64,000 nt of DNA from a virus (taxonomy: Duplodnaviria; Heunggongvirae; Uroviricota; Caudoviricetes), in IMG/VR virus record IMGVR_UViG_3300028898_000252, positions 253,946 through 317,945 of that record; one strand, given 5' to 3'. The notes beneath the pieces are model-generated. The model did no database searches. It was not told the origin of the DNA and saw nothing but the letters and a program-made list of their open reading frames with translations. Positions 8,564 to 63,435 of the stretch are shown here, in pieces. Each line of letters starts with the position of its first letter. Within the stretch, counting starts at the first letter, position 1. Made by a program: the position numbers and the translations under genes.

Positions 8564-9486
8564 TTTATATTACTCCAAAAAAACTCTGATCGCGAAGAAA
8601 GATAGTTAATCATCTCTTCTCTCGAAGAATTAAACCAGGCTTCATCTTTGTGTTGAACATTTCTGTTTAATAACAGATCAAGACCAAGAAGTTTTGCTTC
8701 AATTACTATTCTTGGACAAGTGTCTTTGTCTGATGGTCTAAAACAAAAAGTTTGATACTTTGCCATTTCAGCTAAAAATTGTTTATATGGCAATTTTGGT
8801 AAATGGACATATTCTTTTCCTTCTACATTCAAATACGCTATTGTACTCTCAATTCCTTTTATCCAGGAAGAATTATCTTTTGATAAAATTGCTATCTTTT
8901 TAAGTTTTTCTTTATTTTTTGTTTCTTGATATAAAGATTCTATAAAATCAAGTGATTCTTTATCAAAGACAGAGGAAAGAACTTCTGAATTTACTTCTTT
9001 TATTTCTGGAACCTTTGTTGTGTAGTGCTTTTTCTGTGCTTCACTCATCCAAAATATTTTTTGGGCCGCTTTAAAAAATGGAACGAGAACATTTTTTATT
9101 GCCTCATTTGTTGCACAATCGCAAGGTTTTTTTGTTTGCATTAAATGCAAGCCTTCAGATCTAAAACGACAATACTTGTAATCGAACTCAATTATATAAT
9201 ATTTGACAGCTTCTTCTACAAAAGTATCCAAACTTTCACTTGTGGCTGTCACAAAGTTTGTTATTATAAAGGTTTTATCTTTATTATTTCTTATAAGTTC
9301 AGGTGTTAATGAATTAGAATGTAATTTAAATATTTTTCTTGATCTAGGTGCTTCTTTTATTAGAGATTCTGTTGTTAATTCCGCTCCACCTTGAATTTCT
9401 TCAACAAAAAAATCGGCAACTACAACAGTATCAAACATAGATGGAATATGAAATTCCATTGGCAAATTAGTAAAAACATTTTTCAT
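8560..9486 (-). CDS. GT-B-like glycosyltransferase
   Basis: GGAELT, KG, DTCPRIVIEAKLLG, resembling the GT4 E-x7-E region. Confidence 0.7.
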   Translation of the reverse strand: MKNVFTNLPMEFHIPSMFDTVVVADFFVEEIQGGAELTTESLIKEAPRSRKIFKLHSNSLTPELIRNNKDKTFIITNFVTATSESLDTFVEEAVKYYIIEFDYKYCRFRSEGLHLMQTKKPCDCATNEAIKNVLVPFFKAAQKIFWMSEAQKKHYTTKVPEIKEVNSEVLSSVFDKESLDFIESLYQETKNKEKLKKIAILSKDNSSWIKGIESTIAYLNVEGKEYVHLPKLPYKQFLAEMAKYQTFCFRPSDKDTCPRIVIEAKLLGLDLLLNRNVQHKDEAWFNSSREEMINYLSSRSEFFWSNIK

Positions 9487-48827: not shown

Positions 48828-49130
48828 AAAAATTTCCCAAAAAAATTTTTCCCACTTAATTGTGCAACTTCGGTTTCCTATTCCTCGAAATTTGTTTTAT
48901 AGCTATTGGGGGTCCTTTGTAAAAAAAATTTCTCCCCAAAAAAATTTTCTCTCCCTGTAATTTGTGGGTTAAAATGAAACTATAAAAGAGTTTAAAATAG
49001 GTTTTCCCAAAAAAAATTTCCCTCCCTGAAGAACGTGGATTCATAAAAAAGAAAACTTTATAGCTATTGGGGGTCCTTTGTAAAAAAATTTCTCCCCAAA
49101 AAAATTTTTTCTCCTGGGAGAACGTGGATT
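48828..49130. repeat. non-coding direct repeats with A/T tracts
   Basis: ~58-bp near-identical copies at 48896-48954 and 49057-49114; four CCCAAAAAAATTT units; two AGAACGTGGATT. Confidence 0.85.
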
Positions 49131-49253
49131 AGCACGGTATATGCCAGGAATTACTTCAAAAACCCCCTAAAACCGCCCCCTAGGGGCCTCGTTTTTAACC
49201 CCTTGTTTAAGCCAGGGCCCATTTGCGGGTTGAAACCCCAGGCCCTGTATCCA

Positions 49254-49778: not shown

Positions 49779-49928
49779 TTGAAATTGTTTCTCCCTTCTG
49801 TCTATCTCTTAGCACAATCCACGAAGGTTTATTTACCTTGCGAGAAGTATGCCAAGGGAAAGATAGAAAAGAAAACGACCCTGAGTGTATCAGGGTGGTT
49901 CTCTCGAAACGATCAAAGCGAGTTTGAT

Positions 49929-50168
49929 TCAGGGTGCCCGCTCGAAAACGGTTTCATCGTTGCGTCGAATTCGGAACTCTGCTGCGCTCAGGTGAGCGAA
50001 AGAACCACCGCGCCCGAATTCGGGGTGGGTTCCGTTGACGAGTTGTTTTGCGTAGCGAGCATCCTGCGCGTCGCGAATGGTTGCAAAATCCAACCATTTG
50101 CCATCGCGCTTGATTTGCGCAACGTCATATTCCTTGAAGGTGTATTCCGCGGGCTGTGTTTTGTGCAT
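49929..50168 (-). CDS. cassette hypothetical protein
   Basis: Element, AGAGGA RBS; terminator-like hairpin downstream. Confidence 0.7.
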   Translation of the reverse strand: MHKTQPAEYTFKEYDVAQIKRDGKWLDFATIRDAQDARYAKQLVNGTHPEFGRGGSFAHLSAAEFRIRRNDETVFERAP

Positions 50169-50249
50169 AGTTTGAATTCCTCTCTCTGTGAATATGGTTT
50201 ACCACAATTCTTGGAGGTTTATTTACCTTTCAAGAAGTATGCCAGTCGA

Positions 50250-50684
50250 TCAGTCTTCGCTGATATCCTCCTCTGCCATATCTTTCAGATATGATTCGAA
50301 CGAGGGAGCATTCCAATCACATCCGTATTCGTAGTCGCCTCCGCCCTCGTAATCTTCTCGGTTTTCTCGCCTTTTGATGCGATCGAGACATTCGTTGAGC
50401 GTATACTTGCGAAACGACCTGTTTTTTTCTTCGGAGTAGTTCCGCTCTTCGATTTCCAGCGAACGAAAATCGAGTTCAGACTCTTCGGTTTTGAGCCACA
50501 TTTCTTGCTCGTCTTCGAGGGTTTCGTCGATTCCCTCGGCGATTGCTTGCTTCTCGGTAACACCTTGCGGGTTGCTGAATCGCAAAGTCTTTTCTCTGCG
50601 GCTGTTACCGAGAATGCGGTTAAGGGTAAACCTATCGTCAATATCGAGACGAGCAACAAAACCGCGGCGATGGTTGGTTTTCAT
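50250..50684 (-). CDS. cassette hypothetical protein (MKTNHRRGF family, acidic)
   Basis: Element, GAAGGA RBS. Confidence 0.65.
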   Translation of the reverse strand: MKTNHRRGFVARLDIDDRFTLNRILGNSRREKTLRFSNPQGVTEKQAIAEGIDETLEDEQEMWLKTEESELDFRSLEIEERNYSEEKNRSFRKYTLNECLDRIKRRENREDYEGGGDYEYGCDWNAPSFESYLKDMAEEDISED

Positions 50685-50769
50685 TCTGTTGATCCTTCCG
50701 TGGTTATCTCTTACCACGTTTGGCTCTGAATTATTTACCTTGCAGGGACCGTGCCATCGCGGATTCTGA

Positions 50770-50816
50770 AAATAAAAAATGGGCTACTCGGGTGCTGGTT
50801 AGGCACTCGGTAGCCC
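50770..50816 (-). terminator. intrinsic terminator
   Basis: GGGCTAC.GAGTGC...GCAC.CGAGTAGCCC stem followed by ATTTTTTATTTT. Confidence 0.65.
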
Positions 50817-51003
50817 GTGAGCGGAAACGGAATCTCCGTTTATTTGTGGATTGAAGGGAGCACGTCGCGCGCTCAACCTCGGTTGAAGGGTAGGAAACAA
50901 CAGCAAGAGCGACGAATAGGGTTGCGATTGTTTAGCTCCTCTCTGTGTTTAGGTTTAGCACACCCTTGAAGGAATTATTTTCCTTTCAAGAGATATGCCA
51001 GTG

Positions 51004-51129
51004 TTAGCGGTTGCCGTTTTTGAGGTTGAGGGTTTCGGTTGCCTTTGCGATCATTCCACCAGCGACGAGCGCGGCGAACATCATCACGAAGGCGAAAGCT
51101 GCCCCGTTGGCGAACGTGTTAGCGATCAT
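51004..51129 (-). CDS. 41-aa hydrophobic peptide
   Basis: MIANTFANGAAFAFVMMFAALVAGGMIAK..., AAGGA upstream, stop abuts the next element. Confidence 0.45.
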   Translation of the reverse strand: MIANTFANGAAFAFVMMFAALVAGGMIAKATETLNLKNGNR

Positions 51130-51259
51130 GGGTTTGTGTGGTTTCCTTTCGCTGGCGACGAATCACCGCTGCAACCTCAACGATGCTGTAGGTTGTGCGC
51201 GCGATGGCGAGAATCAACAGAACGATCATAGAGAAATGGTTGTCGATGGAGGGTTCCAT
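51119..51259 (-). CDS. 46-aa hydrophobic peptide
   Basis: Element, AGAGGA RBS; MEPSIDNHFSMIVLLILAIA... Confidence 0.5.
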   Translation of the reverse strand: MEPSIDNHFSMIVLLILAIARTTYSIVEVAAVIRRQRKETTQTHDR

Positions 51260-51338
51260 TTGTTTTCCTCTCTGTGAGTATGTCTTAACATACCATTGAA
51301 GGATTTATTTACCTTTCAAGAGGTGTGCCAAGGTTTCG

Positions 51339-51569
51339 TCACTGGTCGGAAGGAAACCAACCCTTCACAACGGCGTTGTGGGCAATTCCAAGACGAAACA
51401 CCTGGGATCGTACTCGAATGCCGCTCGAAGCATTGAACACCTTGATTGAGGCATTCAGGGCGTTTGGGGCGGCATTCAGAGCAGCGGCGAACGCCTCGTG
51501 TTCGGTTGCTCCGAAACCGCTAGCGCTCAGTCCCGTTTGATTACGGGTCCATCGAAATTTACCTTGCAT
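51339..51569 (-). CDS. cassette hypothetical protein
   Basis: TAATG-coupled to the upstream ORF. Confidence 0.55.
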   Translation of the reverse strand: MQGKFRWTRNQTGLSASGFGATEHEAFAAALNAAPNALNASIKVFNASSGIRVRSQVFRLGIAHNAVVKGWFPSDQ

Positions 51570-51781
51570 TAGTTCATCACCCTTTCAGGTGCGGTTGAGG
51601 GATCGTGACCGAGGTTGAAAGCGGAGCGAAACAACTGTGCTTGCTCGCGCGTATCCGTGAAATGATCGAACACGGCCCCAGTCACGTCGGAGCGAAAACG
51701 GACCCTCCACATTTCACGCGGCGGGCGTTGGTTGCGAAGAAAAAACGCCTTCAACTTTTCGAGAAGTAACTTGTCGAGCAT
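51569..51781 (-). CDS. cassette hypothetical protein
   Basis: GGAGG RBS after the element. Confidence 0.6.
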   Translation of the reverse strand: MLDKLLLEKLKAFFLRNQRPPREMWRVRFRSDVTGAVFDHFTDTREQAQLFRSAFNLGHDPSTAPERVMN

Positions 51782-51928
51782 GACAACCTCCGTTCTGTTT
51801 GACCGTTTCGAATTCCCTTGTGAGTATGTCTTATCACACTCAGTTAAGGTTTATTTACCTTTCACAAACCATGCCAAGCACAGTTTATGAAAACTTTGTT
51901 TTCAAGACCTATGCCAGACTTTTGCCGC

Positions 51929-52312
51929 TCATGCAAACTTGCATGCCGACAAGGTTTTCATCACGGAATACATCCTGTCGATGACCGCGGGGACCTTTTT
52001 GTCGTTGTCGTGGTAAAACATGTTTGCGGCGAGAATAACATTTCTAATCGCCTTGCGCTTGTTCATTCCGACCGCGATATGCACCGCACCGCCACGAATT
52101 GCGATTGAACACCTCCAGCCGTGATCGCGTACGGCATCGAAAACAACATTGACAGGATTGACGCGATTGTTATTCAGCAGGTCGACCAATTTTTCGACCT
52201 TCGCGCCCCCGCTGTAAACCTCGATAACGGCGGCTTCGAGCAAGGTATTGAACCTTTGCTCTCTTGCTTCGATGGCTCGAAAGAATGCCTTGAATGATTC
52301 GAATTGTTCCAT
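51929..52312 (-). CDS. cassette hypothetical protein
   Basis: AAAGGG RBS; start placed at MEQFES. Confidence 0.6.
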   Translation of the reverse strand: MEQFESFKAFFRAIEAREQRFNTLLEAAVIEVYSGGAKVEKLVDLLNNNRVNPVNVVFDAVRDHGWRCSIAIRGGAVHIAVGMNKRKAIRNVILAANMFYHDNDKKVPAVIDRMYSVMKTLSACKFA

Positions 52313-52494
52313 TGTGAAACCCTTTCGTTGGAGAATGACAGCCGCAGAAATAGGATTTGCACCTACAGTTTCCTCTGTTTTGCAGAGGTTTTGGCCACGA
52401 TTCGGCACGGGACCTATTCCCGTTCTGCGGTATAGACTTGTTAACACAACCTCGAAGGTTTTATTTACCTTTCAAGAGGTGTGCCAACGAAGGT

Positions 52495-52707
52495 TTAGTC
52501 GTGATACCAAACATCCTCGCCGTGAATGTTTTTCGACGGAAAAACAACCGTATCCGTGTCCTCGTTGTGCTTCGTGACAGCGAACATCACCTTTCGCTGA
52601 GCGTTGCGCAGCACCTTGCGAGCAAAGCGCTTGAAACCATTGTGAAAGTGGCGATGGTGGGAGTCCTCGCTGCGAGCGGTGAATCCTCGACGGTGGTTCG
52701 TTTTCAA
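52495..52707 (-). CDS. cassette hypothetical protein (MKTNHRRGF family, basic)
   Basis: TTG start after GAAGGGAG; N-terminus matches 50250..50684. Confidence 0.6.
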   Translation of the reverse strand: MKTNHRRGFTARSEDSHHRHFHNGFKRFARKVLRNAQRKVMFAVTKHNEDTDTVVFPSKNIHGEDVWYHD

Positions 52708-52844
52708 TTCCGTTCTCCCTTCTGTCTAGGTCTTAACACACTCTATCGTGAATTATTTTCCTTTCACGAATCGTGCCAAGGTTGACCAAGAGGCTGTCTC
52801 GGTGGGTTGAGGCATTCAGAATTAATTTCAAAATCTGTGCCGCG

Positions 52845-52874
52845 AAAATAAAAAAGCCCCGATTCGCTCGGGGC
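52845..52874 (-). terminator. intrinsic terminator
   Basis: GCCCCGA-GCGAA-TCGGGGC followed by TTTTTTATTTT. Confidence 0.75.
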
Positions 52875-52912
52875 GTGGCGGGTTTGGTTATGTATCCAAA
52901 CCAATTGGTTTC

Positions 52913-53287
52913 TCAATCCTCGTTTTCCGACGAGAACGCGATCGAACGAATTCCGATCTCATGGTAGTTTTTCCATGAGAATGTCAGCCGCTTCGAATCG
53001 TCATCGCAGCCTTTCAAAACGACGTGCGTGCAATCCCCCGATTGCGTGACGACCGAAGCGACCTCCCACAATTGCGAGCCGTGCGCTCGCTTTCCCTTCA
53101 CTTCGAGAATGTCACCAACCTTGACGCGCGAAAGGATGATCCACACGGGATCGCGTCGCGTTCGGTCCGAAACTTGAAATTTTCGTTCGGTCAAGTCATC
53201 GTAGAGGCGGCGAGCCTTCGTGTTTTCATTCGCCCACGCGCGAAACGAACCGATGATTGCCGAGAGGATATCCTTGTTGTTGCTCAT
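52913..53287 (-). CDS. cassette hypothetical protein
   Basis: Purine-rich leader; terminator downstream. Confidence 0.65.
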   Translation of the reverse strand: MSNNKDILSAIIGSFRAWANENTKARRLYDDLTERKFQVSDRTRRDPVWIILSRVKVGDILEVKGKRAHGSQLWEVASVVTQSGDCTHVVLKGCDDDSKRLTFSWKNYHEIGIRSIAFSSENED

Positions 53288-53335
53288 GTTTCTTTTCTCT
53301 TTTCTTTTCGTTGAAGTTGATTGAAGGGTTGGTTT

Positions 53336-53710
53336 TCAGAGAGAGAGGGCGAAAGCGATATCGAGAGCAACAGGGGTTTTGTTTTCCTCCGTTACTCCGT
53401 TGTACTTGATCGCGTGTTCCGCGAGGTTGTAGTGGTCAATCAATTCGACCTCGCAAGGTAGGGGAGTGTTGCAGGCGAGCCGCGTAATCGGAGGCATTTT
53501 TTTGTCTCCGAAAAGTTTTACCAACAAAAACTCTGTTCCGTATTGACCAGTGGAGGCGGAACTTGCGGTCAATTGGTAGACCGCAGAAACCTCTTTGCGG
53601 CCTTTCCGAAATGACAGCAAGAAAAACCTTGCAACCTTGACAAACACCGTAATCGAACAACCGAGTGTTTCGGTGTTGATTCGATCACCAACCTTGAAAA
53701 GATGGTTCAT
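53336..53710 (-). CDS. cassette hypothetical protein
   Basis: Start placed at MNHLFKVGD after AAGGG. Confidence 0.6.
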   Translation of the reverse strand: MNHLFKVGDRINTETLGCSITVFVKVARFFLLSFRKGRKEVSAVYQLTASSASTGQYGTEFLLVKLFGDKKMPPITRLACNTPLPCEVELIDHYNLAEHAIKYNGVTEENKTPVALDIAFALSL

Positions 53711-53866
53711 TCGTTTTTTCCCTTGTTGCTTGACGAAAACCTTGTCGGCGACTGGCTTATCGACAATAATTTTCTTGGGGTTGCGAGACAGGGTGATTCC
53801 TGGCCAGTTTCTATCTCTTATCACAGCTTTCAGCATTGAATTTTCCTTTCAAGCGCTATGCCAAGA

Positions 53867-54049
53867 TTACCTTTTCCGTTGTTTGATTTTCGAACCAGAG
53901 GGCACCACGAGAAACCATTCGAACCTGTTGACAATTGCATTCCAAACCTTGTATCTCCGAATCACTCTCGTGTAGAGAGCACCTTGACGCAGGGTTTCGA
54001 GGTATGAGTCGAACGGACCCAGGTGGTTTTCTGAATAACAGTCGCCCAT
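53867..54049 (-). CDS. cassette hypothetical protein
   Basis: GAAGGTG RBS; stop abuts the next element. Confidence 0.55.
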   Translation of the reverse strand: MGDCYSENHLGPFDSYLETLRQGALYTRVIRRYKVWNAIVNRFEWFLVVPSGSKIKQRKR

Positions 54050-54136
54050 TCGTTCACCTTCCCTTGCTGGCGTGTCTACCTCATATCACGATTGATTCTG
54101 TTTTATTTTCCTTGCAGGGATCATGCCAGCAGTGGA

Positions 54137-54355
54137 CTACTTCGAAACCTCAACTCCAATAATCAAAACCATCGGAGGCTCGCCTACAGAAGTCTCGAAA
54201 CCAGAAACTTTCGTCTGGAAAACTTCATCCTTCTCTGGATTATCCATGAGAGCTTCATTCAGTCGGAGGATCAACCTTTGCGCTTCATCACGCGAAAGGC
54301 CGATAACCAAACGATTTTTGAAAATCTCGTCTGCGGTTTTTTCCCAGTGCGCCAT
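54137..54355 (-). CDS. cassette hypothetical protein
   Basis: AAGGA RBS; start placed at MAHWEK. Confidence 0.6.
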   Translation of the reverse strand: MAHWEKTADEIFKNRLVIGLSRDEAQRLILRLNEALMDNPEKDEVFQTKVSGFETSVGEPPMVLIIGVEVSK

Positions 54356-54569
54356 GATCTTTTCCTTTCCGTGGTTATGATCTAACACATTCAGCTCTGA
54401 ATTATTTACCTTGCAGGGATCATGCCAACCACGGGAGATTGAGAATTATTTTCAAATTGCTGCGGCACAAAAAATGCAGGGCCAAAAACGATAAAAGGGC
54501 AACCCGCTTGTTAAAGCGAAGTTGCCCCTTTGGGTTTATTTACTTTGCAAACCGTGTGCCAACGTTTAG

Positions 54570-54644
54570 CGTCTCTGATAGGACTTGAACCTATGACCTA
54601 CCGCTTAGAAGGCGGTCGCTACTATCCAACTGAGCTACAGAGAC
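54570..54644 (-). tRNA. tRNA-Arg(UCU)
   Basis: GTCTCTG/CAGAGAC acceptor stem; ACCGC-CTTCTAA-GCGGT anticodon arm; GGTTCAAGTCC. Confidence 0.92.
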
Positions 54645-54688
54645 AAAGCGTCTCGTAACGTTACTGTGCGCCGCTTACACTACGGTTT

Positions 54689-55056
54689 TGAGGCCGCGGA
54701 GAGTCGAACTCCGTCTGCAACGTTTCCGAGACTGAAACAGTCTACAGGAGCACTGTTTCGATGTGCAGTCGATACGCAATCCGTCTCGTAACGTCATCGC
54801 GACGTTGGATTGTCCACTATTGGCAATCAACCTTTCGAGGTTGACTCTCGCTCTCGCCGCGAGAAGGCTAGTGGTGCTGAGAGCATATAATACCGACATA
54901 TCCCCTCGGTTAACGGGTTGACTGAGCGGTTTAACTGTTTAACCTAACAGGTTACCCTGTGCAGGATTCGCACCCGCATATCTCAGTCGGTGTGATGGTG
55001 GTTTGTATTGTTTCACTAGCATTCAGTAACCATCGGTACCGAATGCCAGCGGCCAC
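54689..55056 (-). ncRNA. ~370-nt structured RNA with a tmRNA-like 3' end
   Basis: 3' end ...TGTAGAC...GACGGAGTTCGACTCTCCGCGGCCTCA; 5' GTGGCCG pairs 6/7 with CGGCCTC; many internal hairpins; no G3-U70 pair and no recognisable tag peptide. Confidence 0.45.
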
Positions 55057-55197
55057 GATTTATTTAACCCAACACCGAGCATTGTGGCTTGTTTGGTATT
55101 GGACCACGGAATTATTCTCCGTGGATTTGCTTTCCTTAAATGGTGGAAAGCACGACAGCGTTTACGACTCCATACTATATGTCGCCTCTAGCATGAA

Positions 55198-55262
55198 TGG
55201 TGCTCTCATATGGACTCGAACCAATGCCTAGCAGCGCGGTTAAGCGCTCTAGGTATGAGAAC
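55198..55262 (-). ncRNA. D-armless tRNA-like RNA ending ACCA
   Basis: GTTCTCA/TGAGAGC acceptor; 10-bp hairpin with 6-nt loop; GGTTCGAGTCC; ACCA. Confidence 0.6.
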
Positions 55263-55385
55263 ATGTTTTATGTTAAGGAATCTATCGTTTTGACGTTGTT
55301 GCCCCGATCGCCTCGCTCTCTCTGTCTACATTCTAGCGCGACCGAGCAAGGTTTATTTACCTTTCAAGTATCGTGCCAGGGAAAA

Positions 55386-55456
55386 GGGTACCGCCGCGGG
55401 AATCGAACCCGCTTTAGACGTTCTAGCCAACGTCTAAATCTCCAAGGTAGAACCCC
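55386..55456 (-). ncRNA. D-armless tRNA-like element
   Basis: TTTAGACGTT-GGCTAG-AACGTCTAAA hairpin directly followed by a perfect T-arm GCGGG-TTCGATT-CCCGC; acceptor stem weak. Confidence 0.5.
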
Positions 55457-55519
55457 ATAGTTTTATCGGTGCTTGACTAGAGCGCCCGCTATGTTGTCTA
55501 ACTTTAGGTAGCGGTATAG

Positions 55520-55602
55520 TGCCAGCAACGGGACTTGAACCCGTATGCCCTTGCGGACGGCGGATTTTGAATCCGCTGCGTATTCCATTCCGCCACGCTG
55601 GC
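55520..55602 (-). tRNA. tRNA-Leu(CAA)
   Basis: GCCAGCG/TGCTGGC acceptor; GCGGA-TTCAAAA-TCCGC; long variable arm. Confidence 0.93.
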
Positions 55603-55949
55603 ATTTGTTCTGCAATCTCGTTTGCAGAGGACGATACCGAGACACATTCTAATATGCGGCTCGATATTAACACGCTGGGATGACACAATGATCATCCGTG
55701 TGGTACAGCTTAGTTTGATATGTGTACCTAGTTCACAGCCCGCGGTTTTCATTGGCTGCAAAACAAGTTGTGCCAGTCACTTAGCCCGTGTTTGCAGGAT
55801 ACGCGCACGCCGACTAGCTTACGCTCGCGTTTCCGACGTATGGGATATATTACCGTTCACTCGCTTTCCTTTTCGTTGCTGCCCGCCCCATGAATCTCTC
55901 TTACCACACCCGAGCAAGGTTTATTTCCCTTGCAAGCGCTATGCCAGGG

Positions 55950-56189
55950 TCAGAGCGCGACCACCGCGAGGGTTTCGCGACCGTTTTCCCACGGGCAGAG
56001 CCACGCTTTCGCGTAGCCGTTGGGTGCTTGCACGATCACGGGATTACGGGGCGACGCCCGTTTCGCGCGGCAAGCGCGGACGATTTTGTCCACCCCAGAA
56101 TCGATAGAATAGTGAGTCACGAATGTAGCTGCCGTTTCGTTGAACTCGAACACCACTGCTTTCGAATCGTTCACTTTTGCATCCTCCAT
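55950..56189 (-). CDS. cassette hypothetical protein
   Basis: Lies between two elements; stop 3 nt from the next element. Confidence 0.6.
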   Translation of the reverse strand: MEDAKVNDSKAVVFEFNETAATFVTHYSIDSGVDKIVRACRAKRASPRNPVIVQAPNGYAKAWLCPWENGRETLAVVAL

Positions 56190-56254
56190 CCCCCATAATC
56201 TTATGTTAGTACAACCGAGCAGGGTTTATTTACCTTGCACAAGCCATGCCAGAG

Positions 56255-56617
56255 TTAGACCTTGGCGGAATCCTCCGCTCGACGAATAACCCACCATTCG
56301 GTTCCCGCGCCGTCGCGGTCGATTTCACCCACAAGGATGAATTCATTGCTGAGCATATCCATAAACACGCCCTCCCATGCCCCGCGGGTTGTTCGAACGG
56401 ACACACCGAGGATTCTGGAAAACTCAGCCGCAGCCGCAGATTTTCTGACTACGGACGAAAGATTTGTCTTCCGAACGTCGATCTTTCCGCCGCCGCTCAA
56501 TTCGAGCTCGAAACCCTCTTGGGTTTGCTCGATCGCAGTCACGGGAATGAATTCGAGATTCAACCGTTGACGAGCGACGATATTCAAATCGAGACCATCC
56601 GACACAATGCAGTCCAT
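56255..56617 (-). CDS. cassette hypothetical protein
   Basis: AAAGGG RBS; stop 3 nt from the next element. Confidence 0.65.
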   Translation of the reverse strand: MDCIVSDGLDLNIVARQRLNLEFIPVTAIEQTQEGFELELSGGGKIDVRKTNLSSVVRKSAAAAEFSRILGVSVRTTRGAWEGVFMDMLSNEFILVGEIDRDGAGTEWWVIRRAEDSAKV

Positions 56618-56710
56618 TGTTTGAAACCCTTTCTTCGTTGGTGTGTTCTCTGTATAGCAGACCCTAGCAAGGTTTATTTACCTTGCAATCGGTATGCCAA
56701 GGATGATTAG

Positions 56711-56781
56711 TAGGTCCAGAAGGAATCGAACCTTCGTTAACTGGTTAAAAGCCAGCTACTCTACCATTGAGTTATGGACCC
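56711..56781 (-). tRNA. tRNA-Lys(UUU)
   Basis: GGGTCCA/TGGACCT acceptor; GCTGG-CTTTTAA-CCAGT; GGTTCGATTCC. Confidence 0.93.
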
Positions 56782-57130
56782 TTAGAGCGCCGCTGTTTAC
56801 CAACGATTCCCCGTATGCGGGGCAACCTCGGGACAGCGGGCGGTTTTGCACCATTCTTTTATTCGTTTTAGGCCGAATCACACCCGTTAGGTAGCTATCG
56901 GCCTATCGTTTACGACGATACATCAGCGTTTCCTCTTCGCTATATTATTAGAACCTACGCATGCGCGCGGTAGGCTTATGGGTTCGAGGTAGTGAATGCG
57001 GAATGACCCGCGCCCGTATCGTGTTGGCAGCGTGCGGTTTCGCTCGGTATCCGCTGCTAGTTTTACCGATCGACTAGCAACCGCTCAGTGGAGCGGCTGA
57101 CAAGGTGTGTGTAGCACGACTCGGCAGGGT

Positions 57131-57469
57131 TTATTTACCTTGCACCGTCTGTGCCAGCGGGACGCCGCCCGACCACGGGGCATCGTCGATCATTTCGAAA
57201 ATGGTTTGAATTTCCTCGACTGAAAGAGTGGTGTCGTGATACCACTCCGTCAACCTTCGGTCGAAAGCGTCGGCAAGGTCGCGGGTTTCAGCGAATTCGA
57301 ATTCGACCTCTTCGAACATCGAATTGTAAAACCTCGGAGGTTGCTCGCCATTTGCCGCGCGGTGTTCGATGATCGCCTGCTCGCATTCTCCCACGAATTC
57401 GGCGAGTTGTTCTCGCGAATAACCGCGGAGTTTCAGCGTTTGCAATTCTGAGAGATTCTTCGTCGACAT
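57131..57469 (-). CDS. cassette hypothetical acidic protein
   Basis: AGAGGAG leader; reads into the next element (LAQTVQGK, stop inside AAATAA). Confidence 0.6.
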   Translation of the reverse strand: MSTKNLSELQTLKLRGYSREQLAEFVGECEQAIIEHRAANGEQPPRFYNSMFEEVEFEFAETRDLADAFDRRLTEWYHDTTLSVEEIQTIFEMIDDAPWSGGVPLAQTVQGK

Positions 57470-57769
57470 TTTCTTTCGTTGCTCCTCTCTGTGGGTATGT
57501 CTTACCACACCCTTGAAGGAATTATTTACCTTGCAAGCGGTGTGCCAAAAAAAATAGGCTTGGAATAGATCCGAAGCCTCTCACCATTCGTTATATCGCC
57601 TTCAACCGCAAGTTAACTTAATAACTCGCTGAATGGCCGCACTCCCAGGCATCGCGCTATGGACTAGCCTTATGGTTGCGCTTTGTTATGGCCGCTTGCA
57701 CGGTTTGGTTGAAGCAATGCCGTTATCCAACGGCGGTATTGGCTTGACAGAGAATCCTGTTCTCTGTCA

Positions 57770-57846
57770 TGGTAGGCGTAAATGGACTCGAACCATTGAC
57801 CCCACGGTTATAAGCCGTGTGCTCTAACCGACTGAGCTATACGCCC
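57770..57846 (-). tRNA. tRNA-Ile(UAU)
   Basis: GGGCGTA/TACGCCT acceptor with encoded ACCA; CACGG-CTTATAA-CCGTG. Confidence 0.92.
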
Positions 57847-58037
57847 AACGAATGCGGCCTCGCCTTATTCAGCGCCCGCGGTGAATGCTAACCAGCTTGT
57901 CACGGCCAGTGCATTATTTTACCTGCTTTCCGTATCGTTGCGGGTTGAGGTTTTGAGGCAACCTTGCTCGTTGCCCCGTGAGTATGTCTTAGCACGACTC
58001 GGCAGGGTTTATTTGCCTTGCACCGTTCGTGCCAGGG

Positions 58038-58346
58038 TTACGCCAGCTTCGACCACGCCAGCGCGAACAAACGCACGGCGAAAGCCAGGGCGAAAACCGC
58101 AGCGCTCACCCTTGCAATCCCCAGCGCGTTTTTTGACGTTCCGTAACCGTACTCGGACGCAAGAAAACTGTTTGTCAGCCTCTCAGCGATCATGGAAACC
58201 ACGAAAAGCGATCCAAACAACAACAGGTGTTGTCCTGCGGAGAGCGAGAGAAACATCCCGAAAAACGTTCCGATCGCGCCCGAAGCGATGGCGAGCACAA
58301 GCAACACAGCCGCCGCGACTGCGGCGAAAACCTTACCAAAGGTCAA
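58038..58346 (-). CDS. small multi-pass membrane protein (start uncertain)
   Basis: Three hydrophobic stretches; stop 3 nt from the next element. Confidence 0.55.
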   Translation of the reverse strand: MTFGKVFAAVAAAVLLVLAIASGAIGTFFGMFLSLSAGQHLLLFGSLFVVSMIAERLTNSFLASEYGYGTSKNALGIARVSAAVFALAFAVRLFALAWSKLA

Positions 58347-58348
58347 GG

Positions 58349-58729
58349 TTACGACCTTCGCGAGTGTGACGCGCGCTGGAGAATCGGAAGACCAAGAACA
58401 CCACTCGGTCCAACCTTTGCAAACGCATCGGTTTGCTCGTTGCCGCGTTCGCCAGGGACGAAAAGCGTCACCTCGGCATAGCGGTTGCTGTGCCCCGCGC
58501 AGCACTTGGTTTCACTCGAAACCGTTGCGCGCCAGTCAGAAGCGGAAAAAAACTTTTCCGTTTCCTTTCCCGCAGCGTCGTGTCGGATCACTTCGACCGC
58601 GTAGCGCTCCAATTGGAGCCGTTCGCGGAGTTCATCGGCGTGCATTTCCGCCGCTGTGCGTGTGTCGAGCTCCATTCCTTCATCGAAGGAAACATCGCCA
58701 CTGTCTGAACCATTCACTTCGATCGTCAT
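58349..58729 (-). CDS. cassette hypothetical protein
   Basis: GGAGGT RBS. Confidence 0.6.
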   Translation of the reverse strand: MTIEVNGSDSGDVSFDEGMELDTRTAAEMHADELRERLQLERYAVEVIRHDAAGKETEKFFSASDWRATVSSETKCCAGHSNRYAEVTLFVPGERGNEQTDAFAKVGPSGVLGLPILQRASHSRRS

Positions 58730-58831
58730 TGCCTACCTCCATGTAGGGTTGCTAGAGGTTATCTCCAGCAACAACTTTTGAATAACACAACCCTCGAAGG
58801 TTTATTTACCTTGCAGGGATCATGCCATTCT

Positions 58832-58892
58832 TGGAGGGCTTGGGAGAATCAAACTCCCCGCAAAGTTTTTGCTTTGCGAACCATTAAGCCCT
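58832..58892 (-). ncRNA. D-armless tRNA-like RNA
   Basis: AGGGCTT/AAGCCCT stem followed by CCA; CGCAAAG-CAAAAA-CTTTGCG; T-arm GGGAG-TTTGATT-CTCCC. Confidence 0.6.
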
Positions 58893-58897
58893 TGCGG

Positions 58898-59380
58898 TCA
58901 CTCCGCTAGTGCCGCCTGAATCTCGGAAAGTTTCTTCTCGAAGGTGAAACGAGTTTCGAAACGCTCGCACACTTCGCGCAATTCCTCGAAACCACTCGCG
59001 ATTTGTTCGAGCGAATCGGGGTCAACCTCGTTGGGCGCGGTGCGGTCGACCAGCTTCGCATACTCGGTCAACTCGATTCCGAATTGAGCGCCGCGCCAAT
59101 CTCCGTTAGCGTCGCGGTAGTTGAGCACACGCTTTTCGAGCGCGTACATGATCGCGCCGTCCACATCACCCGCCTTTTGCGCGGTGCGCAGCTCGACCAG
59201 CTTCCGATACGACGCGCGCAGGTTTTCCACACCCGCGACGATCATATCAAACTTCTCGTCGACATTCGCGTTTCGAAACGCCGCCAAGTTTTCGAGCGGC
59301 TTGTGCTTGCACGCGTCGAACGAGCGCGTGGCTTCGAGAAGAGCCGCCTTATCTGCAACAACAACAACGTTCGTTCCCAT
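58898..59380 (-). CDS. cassette hypothetical helical protein
   Basis: Follows an element; start placed at MGTNVV. Confidence 0.65.
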   Translation of the reverse strand: MGTNVVVVADKAALLEATRSFDACKHKPLENLAAFRNANVDEKFDMIVAGVENLRASYRKLVELRTAQKAGDVDGAIMYALEKRVLNYRDANGDWRGAQFGIELTEYAKLVDRTAPNEVDPDSLEQIASGFEELREVCERFETRFTFEKKLSEIQAALAE

Positions 59381-59501
59381 TTTTTTCTTTTGCTCCAATG
59401 TTTGAAAAACCGTTCACTTGCTGTGTGAGCACCGTTGCTCACACTCTCTACTTAGCACAACTCGACAAGGTTTATTTACCTTGCAGGGTTCATGCCAAGC
59501 G

Positions 59502-59582
59502 TGGCACTTCCGCCGAGGGTTGCACTCGGCATAGCTATTGCTTGTTAGCTTTAGCTATCGTGTCCTGGTGACACCGAAAGTG
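59502..59582 (-). ncRNA. aberrant cloverleaf tRNA-like RNA
   Basis: CACTTTC/GGAAGTG followed by CCA; GTGTC-ACCAG-GACAC; ATAGCTA...TAGCTAT; GCCGAG-TGCAACC-CTCGGC. Confidence 0.6.
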
Positions 59583-59612
59583 TTTTGTTCTGCCCCTTTC
59601 GGGGCGAGGGTT

Positions 59613-60236
59613 TCAACCCTCGGCGGTTTCGTCGTCGGTCGCAGCGTCGAGCGCTTCGAGCGCGGGCGAATTGCTCAGGTCGGTTGCAGCCGCGCCAGCA
59701 AACCGCGACGGAGGCGCGGAAAGCGCGACGACACGCGCCGTGCGCGCAGGCTTCGCGGGCTTGGGAGCCTCGGGAGCCTTGGGTTTGATTCCGAGCATCG
59801 CAGCGACCGAGGTTTGCGGCGCGTTGGGATTGATTCGCGCGATTCCCGCGCACTCCATTGCAGCGCGGAAGGTTTCGATCAGTGACAGCGCCTCGATCGC
59901 GCAACCCGCGCTATCGCGCGAGTGGAGCACGAAAACGTTGTCGCGACCGATGACCTCACTGCCGTACACGACCTCGCCGCGAACGATGCGAAGCAACAGC
60001 GTCGAGCCCGCCGTGTCCGAGTTTGGCCCGCCGCGCGCGGCGCGCACGCCTTCGAGCAGCGCGAGCGCCGAGCCGCCTTCGTCATCGGTCAAGCGGAACA
60101 TCACGGGCTCTTGTGGCTCGATCCACAGATCAGACTTCGACGCGTCGCCGCCCTCGCCGCACTGCTCGCGAACGTGCGCAACGAGCGCCGCGAGAACCAT
60201 TCCAGCGACAACCGAACGAACAGAATTCTTGCTCAT
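59613..60236 (-). CDS. cassette hypothetical protein with Pro/Ala-rich tail
   Basis: Follows an element; start placed at MSKNSV. Confidence 0.65.
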   Translation of the reverse strand: MSKNSVRSVVAGMVLAALVAHVREQCGEGGDASKSDLWIEPQEPVMFRLTDDEGGSALALLEGVRAARGGPNSDTAGSTLLLRIVRGEVVYGSEVIGRDNVFVLHSRDSAGCAIEALSLIETFRAAMECAGIARINPNAPQTSVAAMLGIKPKAPEAPKPAKPARTARVVALSAPPSRFAGAAATDLSNSPALEALDAATDDETAEG

Positions 60237-60313
60237 GTTTTTTTCTCTCTTTTCTTTCGTTTTGTGAACTCGCGAGCACCGCAACCGTGCGGTGCATCAT
60301 CTCTTGTGAATCT

Positions 60314-60362
60314 CTCTTAGCACGACTCGGCAAGGTTTATTTACCTTGCACCGTCTGTGCCA
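60314..60362 (-). promoter_or_regulatory. representative element: sigma54 -24/-12 box plus downstream extended -10-like box
   Basis: TGGCACAGACGGTGCA AGGTAAATAA ACCTTGCCGAGTCGTGC TAAGAG; GG-N10-GC spacing. Confidence 0.8.
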
Positions 60363-60532
60363 ACCTAACAACCATCGAAACTCACGTTCGCAGGTTAGGT
60401 GGGATGGTACGAATGTTGTTTGTTCGTGCCGTCCCGTCTACTCTGCAACCGATACCCTGTCATGTGCTCTGTCTAGCACACTCTCGGAAGGTTTATTTAC
60501 CTTTCAAGTATCGTGCCAGGACAGTTTCAGGC

Positions 60533-61054
60533 TCAGTCGTCATCGGCAGCATCGAAAAACTTGCCGATCGCGAGGAATTCACCGCGAGTGCAAGCGGCGT
60601 GCCACTCAGGATTCGAGCCCGTCCCGTTTGGAATCGGGCTGAAATTCAATTTCTGTACCATCGTGCGGCGTGCTTTGAATTCGGCGAATCCTGGGAATTC
60701 AACCGAAGCAAGCACCGCGCCGTTGTTTTTCGACCAGTCGTAAAAGTACCGTTGTTTTCCGACGGCACCGTCGTCGGCCAGTGGGGCAACAACGAGACAG
60801 CTTGTTCCTCGCGCCCCGCGTGAGGAATGATTCCCCAGCAAAATGAATCGCCGCTTGTTGATTCGCACAGTTGAATACTTTGGCGCTGCTTTTGCAGCAA
60901 GCACCGTATCCCGCTGAAACTCGCTGAATTCATCGTAGTCAGGCGAATCCCGCTTGATTCGCCCCTGGCGAGCACCTTCGCCTGCGGTACAGTCAAGGTC
61001 GAGCCTTTCAGGCTCGACAACATTGTCATTGTCATTGTCGTTTTCGTTTGCCAC
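60533..61054 (-). CDS. cassette hypothetical protein
   Basis: AGAGGAG RBS and GTG start (ANENDNDND...). Confidence 0.6.
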   Translation of the reverse strand: MANENDNDNDNVVEPERLDLDCTAGEGARQGRIKRDSPDYDEFSEFQRDTVLAAKAAPKYSTVRINKRRFILLGNHSSRGARGTSCLVVAPLADDGAVGKQRYFYDWSKNNGAVLASVEFPGFAEFKARRTMVQKLNFSPIPNGTGSNPEWHAACTRGEFLAIGKFFDAADDD

Positions 61055-61297
61055 TCGCTGTGCTCCTCTCTGTGAATCTCTCTTAGCACGACCGACCAAG
61101 GTTTATTTACCTTGCAGGGTTTGTGCCAACAACCTTGGTCGTTGGAGTTTCGAGCGAAACGCGGCGATCGTCCGTCCCGCCCTGTGTTCTCTGTCTAGCA
61201 CAACCCAAGGTGCTTTATTTACCTTGCAAGCATCATACCAGGGTTGGGCGTTTGGCGCGGTGCGAGCCTCTATCGACCGCGCGTACACGCGTGCGTA

Positions 61298-61369
61298 GCA
61301 TAAACCATGCCAGGTAAGACTACCTAAAAAAACCGTTGGCATGATACTTGCAAGTGGCATGGTTTATGC
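61298..61369. promoter_or_regulatory. inverted pair of sigma54-like boxes, plus a third box, at the head of the array
   Basis: GCATAAACCATGCCA (61298-61312) and TGGCATGGTTTATGC (61355-61369); TGGCATGATACTTGCA at 61337-61352. Confidence 0.65.
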
Positions 61370-61485
61370 CTTCGCGGGGCAACCCTCAACCGTTACCATA
61401 TATGGCAGTATGAAACACCTAAACATTTAGTGAAATGAAATTTAATGAAACTAGGTATGAATTTTATTTGTACTAAGGTTTAGAG

Positions 61486-61959
61486 TTAAACTTTGTATTT
61501 TATAAAAAGAGTTTCGAGTTTTGTTTTAAGTTCTGGATAATGATAAAGGAAACTTTTATTCTTTTTTGGATCAAGGAGTCTTTCGTAAATTTGTTTGTAT
61601 GAGTTTCTCTCAAGCCACGAGAGATAAGCTGAAATAAACTTATCATCTTCGAGATAGTCAAACAAAGTGACTTCAACCATTTCAAAAAATGTTTCTTTGT
61701 CGAGTTTAATTGTTTTGGAGCATATTAGAGCATAATATGCACAAAGTTTTTTGATAAGAAACTCATCATTTTCAAAATCAAGAACTTGTGGTTTTTGGGC
61801 TTTGGGAGAGGAAGTATTCCAGTTTTGGGAAACAATTATTGTCGATTGTGATTCATGTGCGGTAATTGTGTTATAAGAAGGGTCAAACAAAATGGCACGG
61901 TAATCACAACCTGTAAATGTTTTAACAAAGGTTTTGAGTTCTTTGTTTTCAAGTTTCAT
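61486..61959 (-). CDS. hypothetical protein
   Basis: AAGGAGG RBS before MKLENK. Confidence 0.65.
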   Translation of the reverse strand: MKLENKELKTFVKTFTGCDYRAILFDPSYNTITAHESQSTIIVSQNWNTSSPKAQKPQVLDFENDEFLIKKLCAYYALICSKTIKLDKETFFEMVEVTLFDYLEDDKFISAYLSWLERNSYKQIYERLLDPKKNKSFLYHYPELKTKLETLFIKYKV

Positions 61960-62121
61960 TGTTTTGTTGCCTCCTTTTTTTGATTGTTTTGTTTCAACCC
62001 AAACTCTTATTGTTTTGGGTTGATTTATCTTAGCCGCAAACCTTATAAAAGGTTTGGGATTTAAGCTTTGAATTAATATGATAAACATTTAGTATTTTGA
62101 CCCTCCCCTCCCCTTAAAAGA

Positions 62122-63300
62122 TTAATTCTTTTTAGAGTTAAGCTGCGAAAGGTTTTCTTCAAGGGCTTGGTCAATAACTTGCAAAGTATCTCTAAACTGT
62201 TGAGTAAAACTATCAGTAAGGGCTTTGAATTCTTTCTTGAGATTCACATTATCGTTTTCGGCGGAATACCATTCGATTCTGAATCTATCAATAACTTCTG
62301 AATACTGGGAAAGGAATTCAAGTCCTTCGCAGATTGATTTATCAAACACTTCAATTGGATAGTTTCTCAGGTCGAGGCCGTTTGCCTTGAACAAGTTTTC
62401 GTAGGCAAACTTTGCAAGAAACTTTCCAATGAAGCCGAATTGATCTGTAACCTCTTCTTCGTTGTTTATTTCAATAGAAGGAATATAAACAGTCCATTTA
62501 TCAAGTGGAGAAATAAGAGTTTTGTTATCGTCTCTTGCCGATGATCCTGCGTCGGCGAATCGCATAATAACAAATGGTCCATATTGACCATCCCCAGAAT
62601 AAACTTGATAACCAACCATTCCTTTCGGAAAAGGATTCTTTCCTCGCTTTGCCGCGACAGAATAGTTGATTCCAAGGTTCATGTTTCGATAATCAGACCT
62701 TCTTTTCGATTCTTTCCATTCTGCCTTTTTAATATTGTTTTCAATTTCGATTTGCTGAAGGTGTTTGTTGTACAGATTCATAATCTCTTCATCGGCATCA
62801 ACTTCAACAAAAAGACCATCCTTTTTAAAGGATTTTCCTTTGTAGAAAACAGGAGGCAAATAAACATTACTTGTTTGAATGTGTTCAGCTGCAAACTTTT
62901 TTTCTTCTTTAAGATAGTAGGTGATAACAAGACTGTCATTATTCAAACCATCATAGTAATATGAATTCATTTCAACATTCACAATTGGATTTGATGGGTC
63001 GATAATATATTTCTCTGTGACTGAAATCCAGCCATATTTGTTGACGATTGGTTCTTGTGCCTGAAACATTTCAAGATACTTTTTTTGGATTGCCTCGAAT
63101 TCTTCTTTCTCGTGCAAGTAATACACAGGGGAATTTGAACATGTTTCATAGTTTTTCAATTCCTCTTCGGTCATTTCGTTTCTGCGGCGAACTCTCTTTT
63201 CGACAAGTTCGCTGTAATTCAGTTTTTTTCTCAATTCCTCGTGAGCTTTGTATGCAGGGTTTTCATCCGTTCGGAACACACTCAACGACTTTGCGACCAT
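62122..63300 (-). CDS. hypothetical protein (392 aa) under the outlying element
   Basis: GGGAG RBS; long ORF. Confidence 0.75.
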   Translation of the reverse strand: MVAKSLSVFRTDENPAYKAHEELRKKLNYSELVEKRVRRRNEMTEEELKNYETCSNSPVYYLHEKEEFEAIQKKYLEMFQAQEPIVNKYGWISVTEKYIIDPSNPIVNVEMNSYYYDGLNNDSLVITYYLKEEKKFAAEHIQTSNVYLPPVFYKGKSFKKDGLFVEVDADEEIMNLYNKHLQQIEIENNIKKAEWKESKRRSDYRNMNLGINYSVAAKRGKNPFPKGMVGYQVYSGDGQYGPFVIMRFADAGSSARDDNKTLISPLDKWTVYIPSIEINNEEEVTDQFGFIGKFLAKFAYENLFKANGLDLRNYPIEVFDKSICEGLEFLSQYSEVIDRFRIEWYSAENDNVNLKKEFKALTDSFTQQFRDTLQVIDQALEENLSQLNSKKN

Positions 63301-63386
63301 GTTTTTATTTCTCCCGAGTGAATTGGTTTTTGTTGCCCCGATTATCGCTGCGGTGAGCCTCTATCACTCGCGCGATCACGAGCACA

Positions 63387-63435
63387 CGCATAGCACAATC
63401 CCCCGCGGATTATTTACCTTGCAACGACCGTGCCA
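63387..63435 (-). promoter_or_regulatory. outlying 26th copy of the element, upstream of the 392-aa ORF
   Basis: TGGCACGGTCGTTGCA AGGTAAATAA N17 TATGCG. Confidence 0.8.

Follow-up and report, generated by a model that had tools for sequence, protein, structure and literature searches.

A sigma-54-type promoter-like module at the cassette boundaries of a GC-rich accessory-gene island in a jumbo phage

Which transcription machinery reads a sequence that is repeated 26 times within 13.6 kb of a phage genome and is found nowhere else in it? The repeat lies in a 64,000-nt stretch (hereafter the window; positions 253,946 to 317,945) of the IMG/VR virus record IMGVR_UViG_3300028898_000252. The genome analyzed is this record, 390,884 bp with direct terminal repeats and rated complete, which bears out the phage origin proposed for the DNA in an initial annotation made from the letters alone. 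The stretch is a GC-rich, hyperplastic, shuffling accessory-gene island of an uncultured sewage jumbo phage, with a module of ~57 nt at each cassette boundary. Judged from the sequence of this module, its reader is, on balance, most likely the sigma-54 RNA polymerase of the host.

A repeated module with sigma-54-type boxes

Twenty-six copies of the module, with the consensus TGGCAY-N5-nTG(C/A)A-AGGNAAATAA-N13-GTGNTA, lie between 49829 and 63435, all oriented alike on the minus strand. When the pattern TGGCAYNNNNNNTGMAAGGNAAATAA was searched with at most 2 mismatches, 26 matches were obtained, all on the minus strand at 49829-63435, compared to 0.00 in dinucleotide shuffles, while the 16-nt core TGGCAY-N6-TGMA alone gave 29 matches (0.38 expected). 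A scan of the whole 390,884-bp genome, as suggested with the initial annotation, found 0 copies of the full motif outside the island. The number and co-orientation of the copies were as first described; the strand had to be corrected to minus, and the gap between TGGCAY and TG(C/A)A, given as seven bases, is 6 nt (the N7 pattern as written has 0 matches). The fixed GG-N10-G(C/A) spacing was recovered, as was the 17-nt spacer from AAATAA to TA(A/G)(G/A)A (equivalent to AAATAA-N13-GTGNTA), which follows the exact pattern in 20/26 copies and is kept in relatives. As had been claimed, what follows each copy, in its own orientation, is one or two small open reading frames (ORFs), a tRNA or a short unit without ORF.

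Positions within the module are given as an index counted along the ungapped alignment of the 26 copies. The T, both Gs and the A of TGGCA are invariant and its C is present in 25/26 copies; the preceding base is C or T in 24/26, the following one is split 13/13 between C and T, and R stands after CAY in 26/26. Between this R and the TG lie N3, c and y (T at index 11 in 14/26), followed by T12 (25/26), G13 (26/26) and A15 (26/26). Beyond the -12 box come AGG, t, the nearly invariant AAATAA, a, c and C, then ~8 variable bases, (g/a)(g/a)tT, GTG, n, TA, a, g and a. Seven bases beyond TAaga is a C-A, with the A present in 20/26 copies, and then a purine-rich Shine-Dalgarno (SD) stretch.

Sigma-54 promoters are defined by GG and TGC elements at -24/-12 (Barrios et al. 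1999 consensus as used in PMC3844500). All 26/26 copies of the module have the GG and 25-26/26 the TG, the doublets being exactly 10 bp apart, and the extended consensus YTGGCACG-N4-TTGCW is matched down to its weakly preferred flanks (a Y ahead of TGG, an R behind CAC and a W behind TGC). The resemblance of the TGGCAY and TG(C/A)A boxes to -24/-12 elements, pointed out in the initial annotation, is very good, extending over ~12 positions. An A is found 12 nt after the GC, the position expected for a sigma-54 start, in 20/26 copies.

The module is also fitted to translation on both of its sides. Stop codons of the preceding gene are provided by the TAA triplets of TAAATAA or by the TGA in TTGAA variants. 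Among 78 distinct modules from the phage and its relatives, 38 have a clear SD and start codon; the start codon lies at a median index of 78 and never below 68, and the SD does not start before about index 55. It starts at index 54-57 in five modules and in L110:9162, which favors a transcription start upstream of index 55. Module variants can be identical though they head unrelated cassettes (e.g., 60362, 58034 and 57156; modules are named here by their upper coordinate or their number).

Overlooked in the initial annotation, an imperfect 45-nt inverted repeat spans the element (positions 0-44), with TGGCAY pairing with GTGnTA and GCAAGGT with ACCTTGC around the loop AAATAA. The sigma-54 match is not a by-product of this repeat, the 5' arm being far more conserved than the 3' arm. 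The G at index 2 is invariant and never covaries with its hairpin partner, which may be C, T, G or A, and the G at index 1 always faces T; this indicates that the 5' boxes matter as sequence and are not maintained for pairing. Were index 43 perfectly complementary, a convergent GG-N10-GC would arise on the other strand, which the invariant T may serve to prevent.

Cassette turnover among relatives

A metagenome-wide pattern scan retrieved eight short contigs that are variants of the island, one of them labelled activated-sludge. With the 173-amino-acid (aa) island protein as the query, longer contigs of sewage type were obtained, with 83% identity in L112, 74% in L106/L107 and 61% in L110; ERZ28655916, ERZ28615168 and JGI 3300036768 are sewage samples in which relatives occur. 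In all of these contigs, an AT-rich flank gives way to a GC-richer island holding 12-25 co-oriented modules per locus. Across the four lineages TGG(C/T)A, TGCA(AGG), GTGcTA at unchanged spacing and CAC are kept, while the block after -12 drifts, reading AAGGTAAATAA in this phage, AAGGTTGATAA in L112 and AAGGAAAATAA in L106, and being variable in L110. The occurrence of the module and of the GC contrast in several lineages indicates that both are old, maintained features of the phage group and not a recent import.

No relatives were found by exact motif scans of IMG/VR and the GenBank phages, nor by searches with the 392-aa protein and the sigma protein of the phage in the same collections. Searching GenBank phages with two window proteins by tblastn gave no match, and blastn of the island returned tRNA matches only. 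As separate observations, the AT-rich flank of the island in L106/L107/L108 (1-1103) carries IS605 OrfB/TnpB-like and MnmA-like tRNA methyltransferase genes. Repeated or tandem sigma-54-type cores were also seen in unrelated metagenome contigs, namely L009 and L033 (CEUT01...), where the repeat is GTAAACTAGTTTTGGCACGGTTATTGCAAGGGAAATAA, and L016 (ERZ795051), which has three such cores within 100 nt.

Island relatives differ by gain and loss of cassettes, with a recombination junction inside a module. Contig L022 runs parallel to the window over 62199 to 60487, after which its sequence continues at 58827-58699. Its junction module is an exact chimera, with its left part from module 60518 and its right part from module 58827. 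The crossover falls within the shared AAGGTAAATAAACCTTC, and three cassettes are missing. The cassette between modules 54128 and 54427 is missing from L021, which has an extra ORF cassette after tRNA-Arg, where module 54561 of the window runs straight into a terminator. In L047, 54699-55051 is absent, an indel in the region of a weak YrlA-like match. These differences in L021 and L047 are cassette indels located at the boundaries formed by modules.

Such shuffling at the element, like the inverted repeat, had escaped the initial annotation, and it recalls the promoter early stem-loops (PeSLs) of T4-type phages. These consist of an upstream stop, a promoter of host consensus overlapped by a stem-loop that contains G-T pairs, and then SD and start codon (PMC2839356, PMC4122927), and genes of unknown family are shuffled through them in modular fashion (Arbiol et al. 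2010, PMC2839356; Comeau et al. 2014, PMC4122927). The likeness lies in a composite module within a hyperplastic region, in genes of unknown family, and in indels and replacements with crossovers inside the module. In contrast, the promoter boxes of our modules are of sigma-54 type and those of PeSLs of sigma-70 type, the stem-loop, an effective terminator in PeSLs, here lacks the GGGG/CCCC stem and the U tract, the island has its own base composition (GC content at third codon positions, GC3, of 0.5-0.74 versus 0.23), and the phage is not a known relative of T4 (tblastn of two proteins gave no GenBank phage). In sequence terms, the architecture is PeSL-type and the promoter class sigma-54-type. 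Integron attC arrays likewise consist of co-oriented small cassettes with imperfect palindromes between them and with content varying among relatives; here, however, the repeat is on the 5' side with a ribosome-binding site after it. An attC array was rejected, as no integrase family was found among the neighboring proteins scanned and the GTT of the GTTRRRY core is lacking in most copies, which read GTGCTAAGA.

Candidate readers of the module

The layout of the modules may be described as upstream stops, the sigma-54-type promoter Y-TGGCA-Y-R-N4-y-TG(C/A)A with the AT-rich AGGTAAATAA at the expected site of bubble opening and an A, the putative start, 12 nt after the GC, a downstream arm, a conserved CA(C), and SD plus start codon. 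The downstream arm, ACCTTGC...GTGNTA, is an imperfect inverted complement of the promoter, and the 45 nt can thus fold as one hairpin. In the mechanism that we propose, host RNA polymerase with sigma-54 would bind each module and fire when an activator of the host, or an unrecognized one of the phage, is active, and the island would be expressed cassette by cassette. The repeated modules could at the same time act as portable homology patches through which related phages would gain, lose and exchange cassettes.

The transcription genes of the phage point the same way. The sigma-54 domains PF04552 and PF04963 had no match in the phage, and neither a multisubunit nor a T7-like RNA polymerase was found in it. 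Of the two kinds of regulator that the initial annotation had suggested looking for, a bacterial enhancer-binding protein and a sigma factor, only the latter turned up, as a single 303-aa Sigma70_r2 protein (G000:77260-78171). The lack of a phage sigma-54, activator or polymerase makes a host factor the simplest reader of the modules. Elsewhere, TTGAC-N17-19-TAnnnT is enriched upstream of genes (11 versus 1.3 expected), indicating that the phage relies on host polymerase with canonical sigma factors. The Bacteroidota box TAnnTTTG upstream of genes was not (16 versus 13.2 expected), and together these two counts do not support a Bacteroidota host.

As known for RpoN promoters, the modules have GG and TGC 10 bp apart, consensus flanks and a purine ~12 nt after the GC. 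They differ in that no enhancer or activator gene is seen here, in the packing of 26 candidate promoters only 112-2195 nt apart, in the conservation of a block at -11 to -1 and a box at +14 to +19, and in the inverted repeat spanning the promoter. Among phages, the lytic Pseudomonas phage YuA strictly requires host sigma-54 according to a statement in PMC5053324 that cites Ceyssens 2008. The initial annotation, which knew of no described phage regulon with this architecture, missed that precedent. Mapping of transcription start sites in YuA linked just one mapped promoter to a sigma-54-like region (bioRxiv 10.1101/2023.10.13.562163). Both phage genomes hold sigma-54-like promoter regions, whereas a 26-module array, a GC-rich island or an inverted-repeat architecture is not reported for YuA.

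Several observations weigh against host sigma-54. Canonical sigma-54 promoters are silent without an activator, and no activator gene was detected in the phage, whether by PF00158 matches or by a six-frame search for GAFTGA-type motifs. At -12, 17 copies have C and 9 have A, leaving 9/26 without the conserved C. Upstream of the Y there is no conservation that could mark an enhancer, positions -30 to -2 carrying almost no information. The most conserved block, AAGGNAAATAA (-11 to -1), as well as GTGNTA and CAC, is foreign to known sigma-54 elements, and together these three share a sigma-70-family geometry (-35 slot, 17-nt spacer, TGnTA, and CA 12 nt after the T). As for the inverted repeat, covariation is weak, the native arm pairing just 1 kcal/mol better than a swapped one (p = 0.04), and RNAalifold found no consensus structure on an alignment of 43 copies. 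On the activator, it is known that activators without a DNA-binding domain can act on any sigma-54 promoter from solution (PMC3844500).

The alternative that survives best takes this second geometry as the working promoter, in which AAATAA fills the -35 slot and a 17-nt spacer separates it from an extended -10-like TGTGnTA(A/G)(G/A)A. Transcription would start at the CA (index 54-55), giving a 5' untranslated region of ~20 nt. The reader would be a sigma-70-family factor, e.g., the 303-aa protein of the phage, whose very presence fits, and the sigma-54-like boxes would be a second promoter for another time or a regulator site. The distances, already remarked on in the initial annotation, were confirmed and are exact, with the T of TA 12 nt before the C-preceded A (20/26), TG at -15/-14 and the spacer at 17 nt, and GTGcTA and CAC are kept in all four lineages. 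However, a T at -7 is present in just 3/26 copies, L110 does not conserve the presumed -35 block and L112 has it in altered form, and a phage sigma factor would serve this island alone, the genome having no copy of the motif outside it. The SD begins 0-2 nt from the putative start in about six modules, and the invariant TGGCA and TG-A boxes are left unexplained. We therefore regard it as unlikely that this geometry is the working promoter, and as a serious possibility that it matters, perhaps as a second promoter used at another time. A different sigma-70 reading, TTGGCA-N16-AATAAT, was rejected, as at least 10/12 positions were reached in just 3 copies. So were sigma-28, sigma-32, Bacillus sigma-E and the T4 late promoter TATAAATA, for which hand comparison gave partial matches only; TATAAATA is not enriched in the genome.

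It is less likely, and in our view improbable, that the element acts primarily as an RNA hairpin on long read-through transcripts, as a processing or stabilizing site or the target of a phage endoribonuclease, with its sigma-54 likeness secondary. Read-through is to be expected with three intrinsic terminators in 13.6 kb, and most of 43 distinct copies fold into a single 45-nt hairpin (mean z -2.9). In the fixed register, 68% of cells are paired, compared to 33-43% in slid controls; index 1/43 is an invariant G.U pair, and index 5/39 is C:G or U:G. Yet 6 copies clearly do not fold and still keep all boxes, variation is confined to the 3' arm, the 5' arm being invariant, and the weak arm-swap effect and the missing RNAalifold consensus also speak against this reading. 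Appositions of G.T and A.C are near-equal apart from the invariant pair (163 versus 136), which does not decide on strand-specific RNA pairing. The 12-position sigma-54 match with its exact spacing would also go unexplained. A leader mini-hairpin, GTGnTA...CAC, showed no consistent covariation on inspection, and no T-run follows the hairpin in the 26-copy alignment. The early genes of phage T7 have RNase III processing hairpins between them, and the likeness is in having imperfect hairpins in nearly every gap of a co-oriented block of small genes; T7 sites, in contrast, lack strict sequence conservation and are not promoter look-alikes.

Slightly less probable again is a site for a DNA-binding protein of the phage (a repressor, activator or recombination protein recognizing the GCAAGGT-AAATAA-ACCTTGC dyad), or a decoy that traps sigma-54 holoenzyme in closed complexes. 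Since copy-specific compensation is weak, the dyad belongs to the consensus and not to individual copies, as a protein site would have it; the crossovers inside the element and the lack of a detected activator also fit. Against this, the flanking bases (Y ahead of TGG, R behind CAY and W behind TGC) follow sigma-54 preferences, a decoy needs neither co-orientation nor a fixed distance to the start codon, and sigma-54-type cores without the dyad are conserved at the island head. The dense sigma-54 sponge put forward in the initial annotation fits poorly, as the copies are co-oriented with genes, stand at a fixed distance before SD and start codon and hold the stops of the preceding gene; a pure sponge is unlikely.

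Finally, we see little chance that the inverted repeat lets the promoters work without an enhancer-binding protein, whether by extruding or transiently forming a hairpin at AAATAA that would offer the sigma-54 holoenzyme a ready -12 fork and a pre-opened start, with supercoiling replacing the ATPase in loose analogy to the hairpin promoters used by the virion polymerase of phage N4, or by each module doubling as an enhancer site for a non-canonical activator acting on adjacent modules; either version would be a sigma-54 programme independent of enhancer-binding proteins.

Island contents and what the modules may mean

The island covers 13.6 kb at 48-62% GC, compared to ~30% around it and 33% for the 391-kb phage, and its genes have a GC3 of 0.49-0.74 (0.23 for the rest of the genome). 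About 17 cassettes have one or two small ORFs, 4 have a tRNA and 4 are short units without ORF. The four tRNAs sit in several hundred bases of GC-rich non-coding sequence, and a tRNA array was rejected as explanation of the GC-rich block, there being just 4 of them. No Pfam or PHROG family was found at a useful level for the 20 island ORFs scanned, and Rfam gave nothing beyond tRNAs at gathering score. The early or host-takeover region of the initial annotation is, with no island protein assigned to a known family, a conjecture. Seven ORFs, compared with related metagenome contigs, have substitutions mainly at third codon positions, indicating that they are real genes.

Module 1 (63379..63435; all modules are on the minus strand) reads TGGCACGGTCGTTGCA-AGGTAAATAA...GTGCTA and precedes a conserved leader and two AT-rich genes of the usual phage composition, encoding proteins of 392 aa (63300-62122) and 200 aa (62088-61486). 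By eye, neither protein has a Walker A motif, so they are not obvious AAA+ activators. The leader (63345-63375, minus) is GC-rich and contains a stem-loop, GCGAGC-GATAGAG-GCTCGC, that is kept in all four lineages and recurs at 61262-61290 (minus). There it lies behind an extra sigma-54-type core, TGGCATGGTTTATGCT (61297..61312, minus), which lacks the later boxes and is followed by the conserved GATAGAGGCTC stem-loop. With two tandem cores on the plus strand, TGGCATGATACTTGCA and TGGCATGGTTTATGCC (61337..61370), which face outward from the island, antisense to the 200-aa gene, this core forms a near-identical divergent pair that is kept in L106 and L112. The arrangement looks like a candidate control region at the head of the island, and the leader element might serve as a regulatory leader RNA or as a site for an activator. 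Two further cores are TGGCACGCCGCTTGCA (60589..60604, minus), inside the 3' end of the 173-aa gene and kept in L022, L106 and L112, and a core-only copy at 51901..51916 (minus), 40 nt upstream of module 21.

Module 2 (61184..61240), a TGGTAT variant, heads a 112-nt unit without ORF. Module 3 (61072..61128) precedes the 173-aa gene (61054-60533), which is coding by its substitutions at the three codon positions (5/5/30 versus L022). A 156-nt unit without ORF follows module 4 (60462..60518), whose left half is in the L022 chimera, and an ORF at 60284-59613 (223 aa from TTG; likely ATG start at 60236) follows module 5 (60306..60362). Module 6 (59441..59497) is followed by an ORF of 166 aa (59398-58898) and module 7 (58771..58827), which contributes the right half of the chimera, by a 126-aa coding gene (58729-58349; 8/7/27 versus L035). 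A non-coding unit with tRNA-Ile(TAT) (57846-57770) belongs to module 8 (57978..58034). The 112-aa ORF of module 9 (57491..57547) extends over 57469-57131, and its stop is the last TAA of AGGTAAATAA in the next one, module 10 (57100..57156), which heads a non-coding unit with tRNA-Lys(TTT) (56781-56710). ORFs of 120 aa (56617-56255) and up to 79 aa (56189-55950) lie behind modules 11 (56643..56699) and 12 (56195..56251).

Further along the array, module 13 (55890..55946) heads a non-coding unit with tRNA-Leu(CAA) (55602-55519), and module 14 (55322..55378) ~750 nt of non-coding sequence that includes tRNA-Arg(TCT) (54644-54569). Upstream of this tRNA-Arg, a weak match to YrlA (Y RNA-like) was seen at 54988-54918 on the minus strand, below gathering score (25.1 bits, E = 0.11). 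A putative gene at 54899-54675 was rejected as non-coding, having indels and no third-position bias. Module 15 (54505..54561), AAGTAAATAA, has no GTGNTA box and runs into an intrinsic terminator (~54530-54484), one of the three in the island together with 52874-52856 and the array end. Modules 16 (54371..54427) and 17 (54072..54128) precede coding genes of 72 aa (54355-54137; 0/4/10 versus L047) and 60 aa (54049-53867; 2/0/8 and 6/3/14). Module 18 (53807..53863), a AGGAAAATTC variant, has ORFs at 53836-53336 and 53287-52913, before the second terminator.

In the remaining part, module 19 (52722..52778) is followed by a 70-aa ORF (52707-52495) and module 20 (52430..52486) by one of up to 172 aa (52447-51929). 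Module 21 (51820..51876) heads two coding genes of 70 aa (51781-51569) and 76 aa (51569-51339), with 5/6/13 and 0/0/4 substitutions versus L027, and module 22 (51274..51330) two hydrophobic peptides encoded next to each other, one of 46 aa (51259-51119) and one of 41 aa (51129-51004). Behind module 23 (50944..51000) is a 244-nt unit without clear ORF, and modules 24 (50700..50756) and 25 (50188..50244) precede ORFs of 144 aa (50684-50250) and 79 aa (50168-49929). The proteins at 50684-50250 and 52707-52495 share an N-terminus, (M/L)KTNHRRGF(V/T)AR, which marks them as paralogues. Module 26 (49798..49854), a TCGCA variant with a 174-aa ORF (49778-49254), is the last, and terminator-like hairpins on both strands (49094-49187) close the array.

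Outside the island, ~20 strong sigma-70-type promoters, TTGACA...GTGnnTA(A/G)nnT, with GC-rich inverted repeats in or around the spacer are distributed genome-wide, for example at 26679 (plus) of the window and at G000:38604, 37610, 240590 and 8429 (minus), several of them upstream of tRNA clusters. By their appearance, these sites are classical PeSL-type modules carried by this phage as well. One of its 21 tRNAs, located outside the window at G000:61455-61527 (plus), has the anticodon CTA and is directly preceded by a TTGACA-N17-TACACT promoter; it would read amber, and late-stage stop-codon recoding is possible. Within the window, an 825-aa PIN and PhoH protein (15206-17683, minus) is interrupted by a LAGLIDADG domain, probably an intein, and a Prim-Pol protein is encoded at 9483-11513.

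To our knowledge, phage transcription is thought to rest on host sigma-70, phage sigma factors and phage polymerases, with published use of sigma-54 being essentially that of YuA. The present locus is a plastic accessory-gene island of at least four sewage phage lineages with a sigma-54-type promoter per cassette and no activator in sight. Its GC contrast (GC3 of 0.5-0.74 versus 0.23), maintained in several lineages, is a compositional phenomenon in its own right. If host sigma-54 does read the modules, the accessory genes and extra tRNAs would be tied to the signaling state of the host through whichever activator is active. At least 26 sigma-54 promoter variants of fixed architecture would then be available as a natural set for studying activator dependence. 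The PeSL principle would also generalize, in that mobile promoter modules could be built on any host promoter class.

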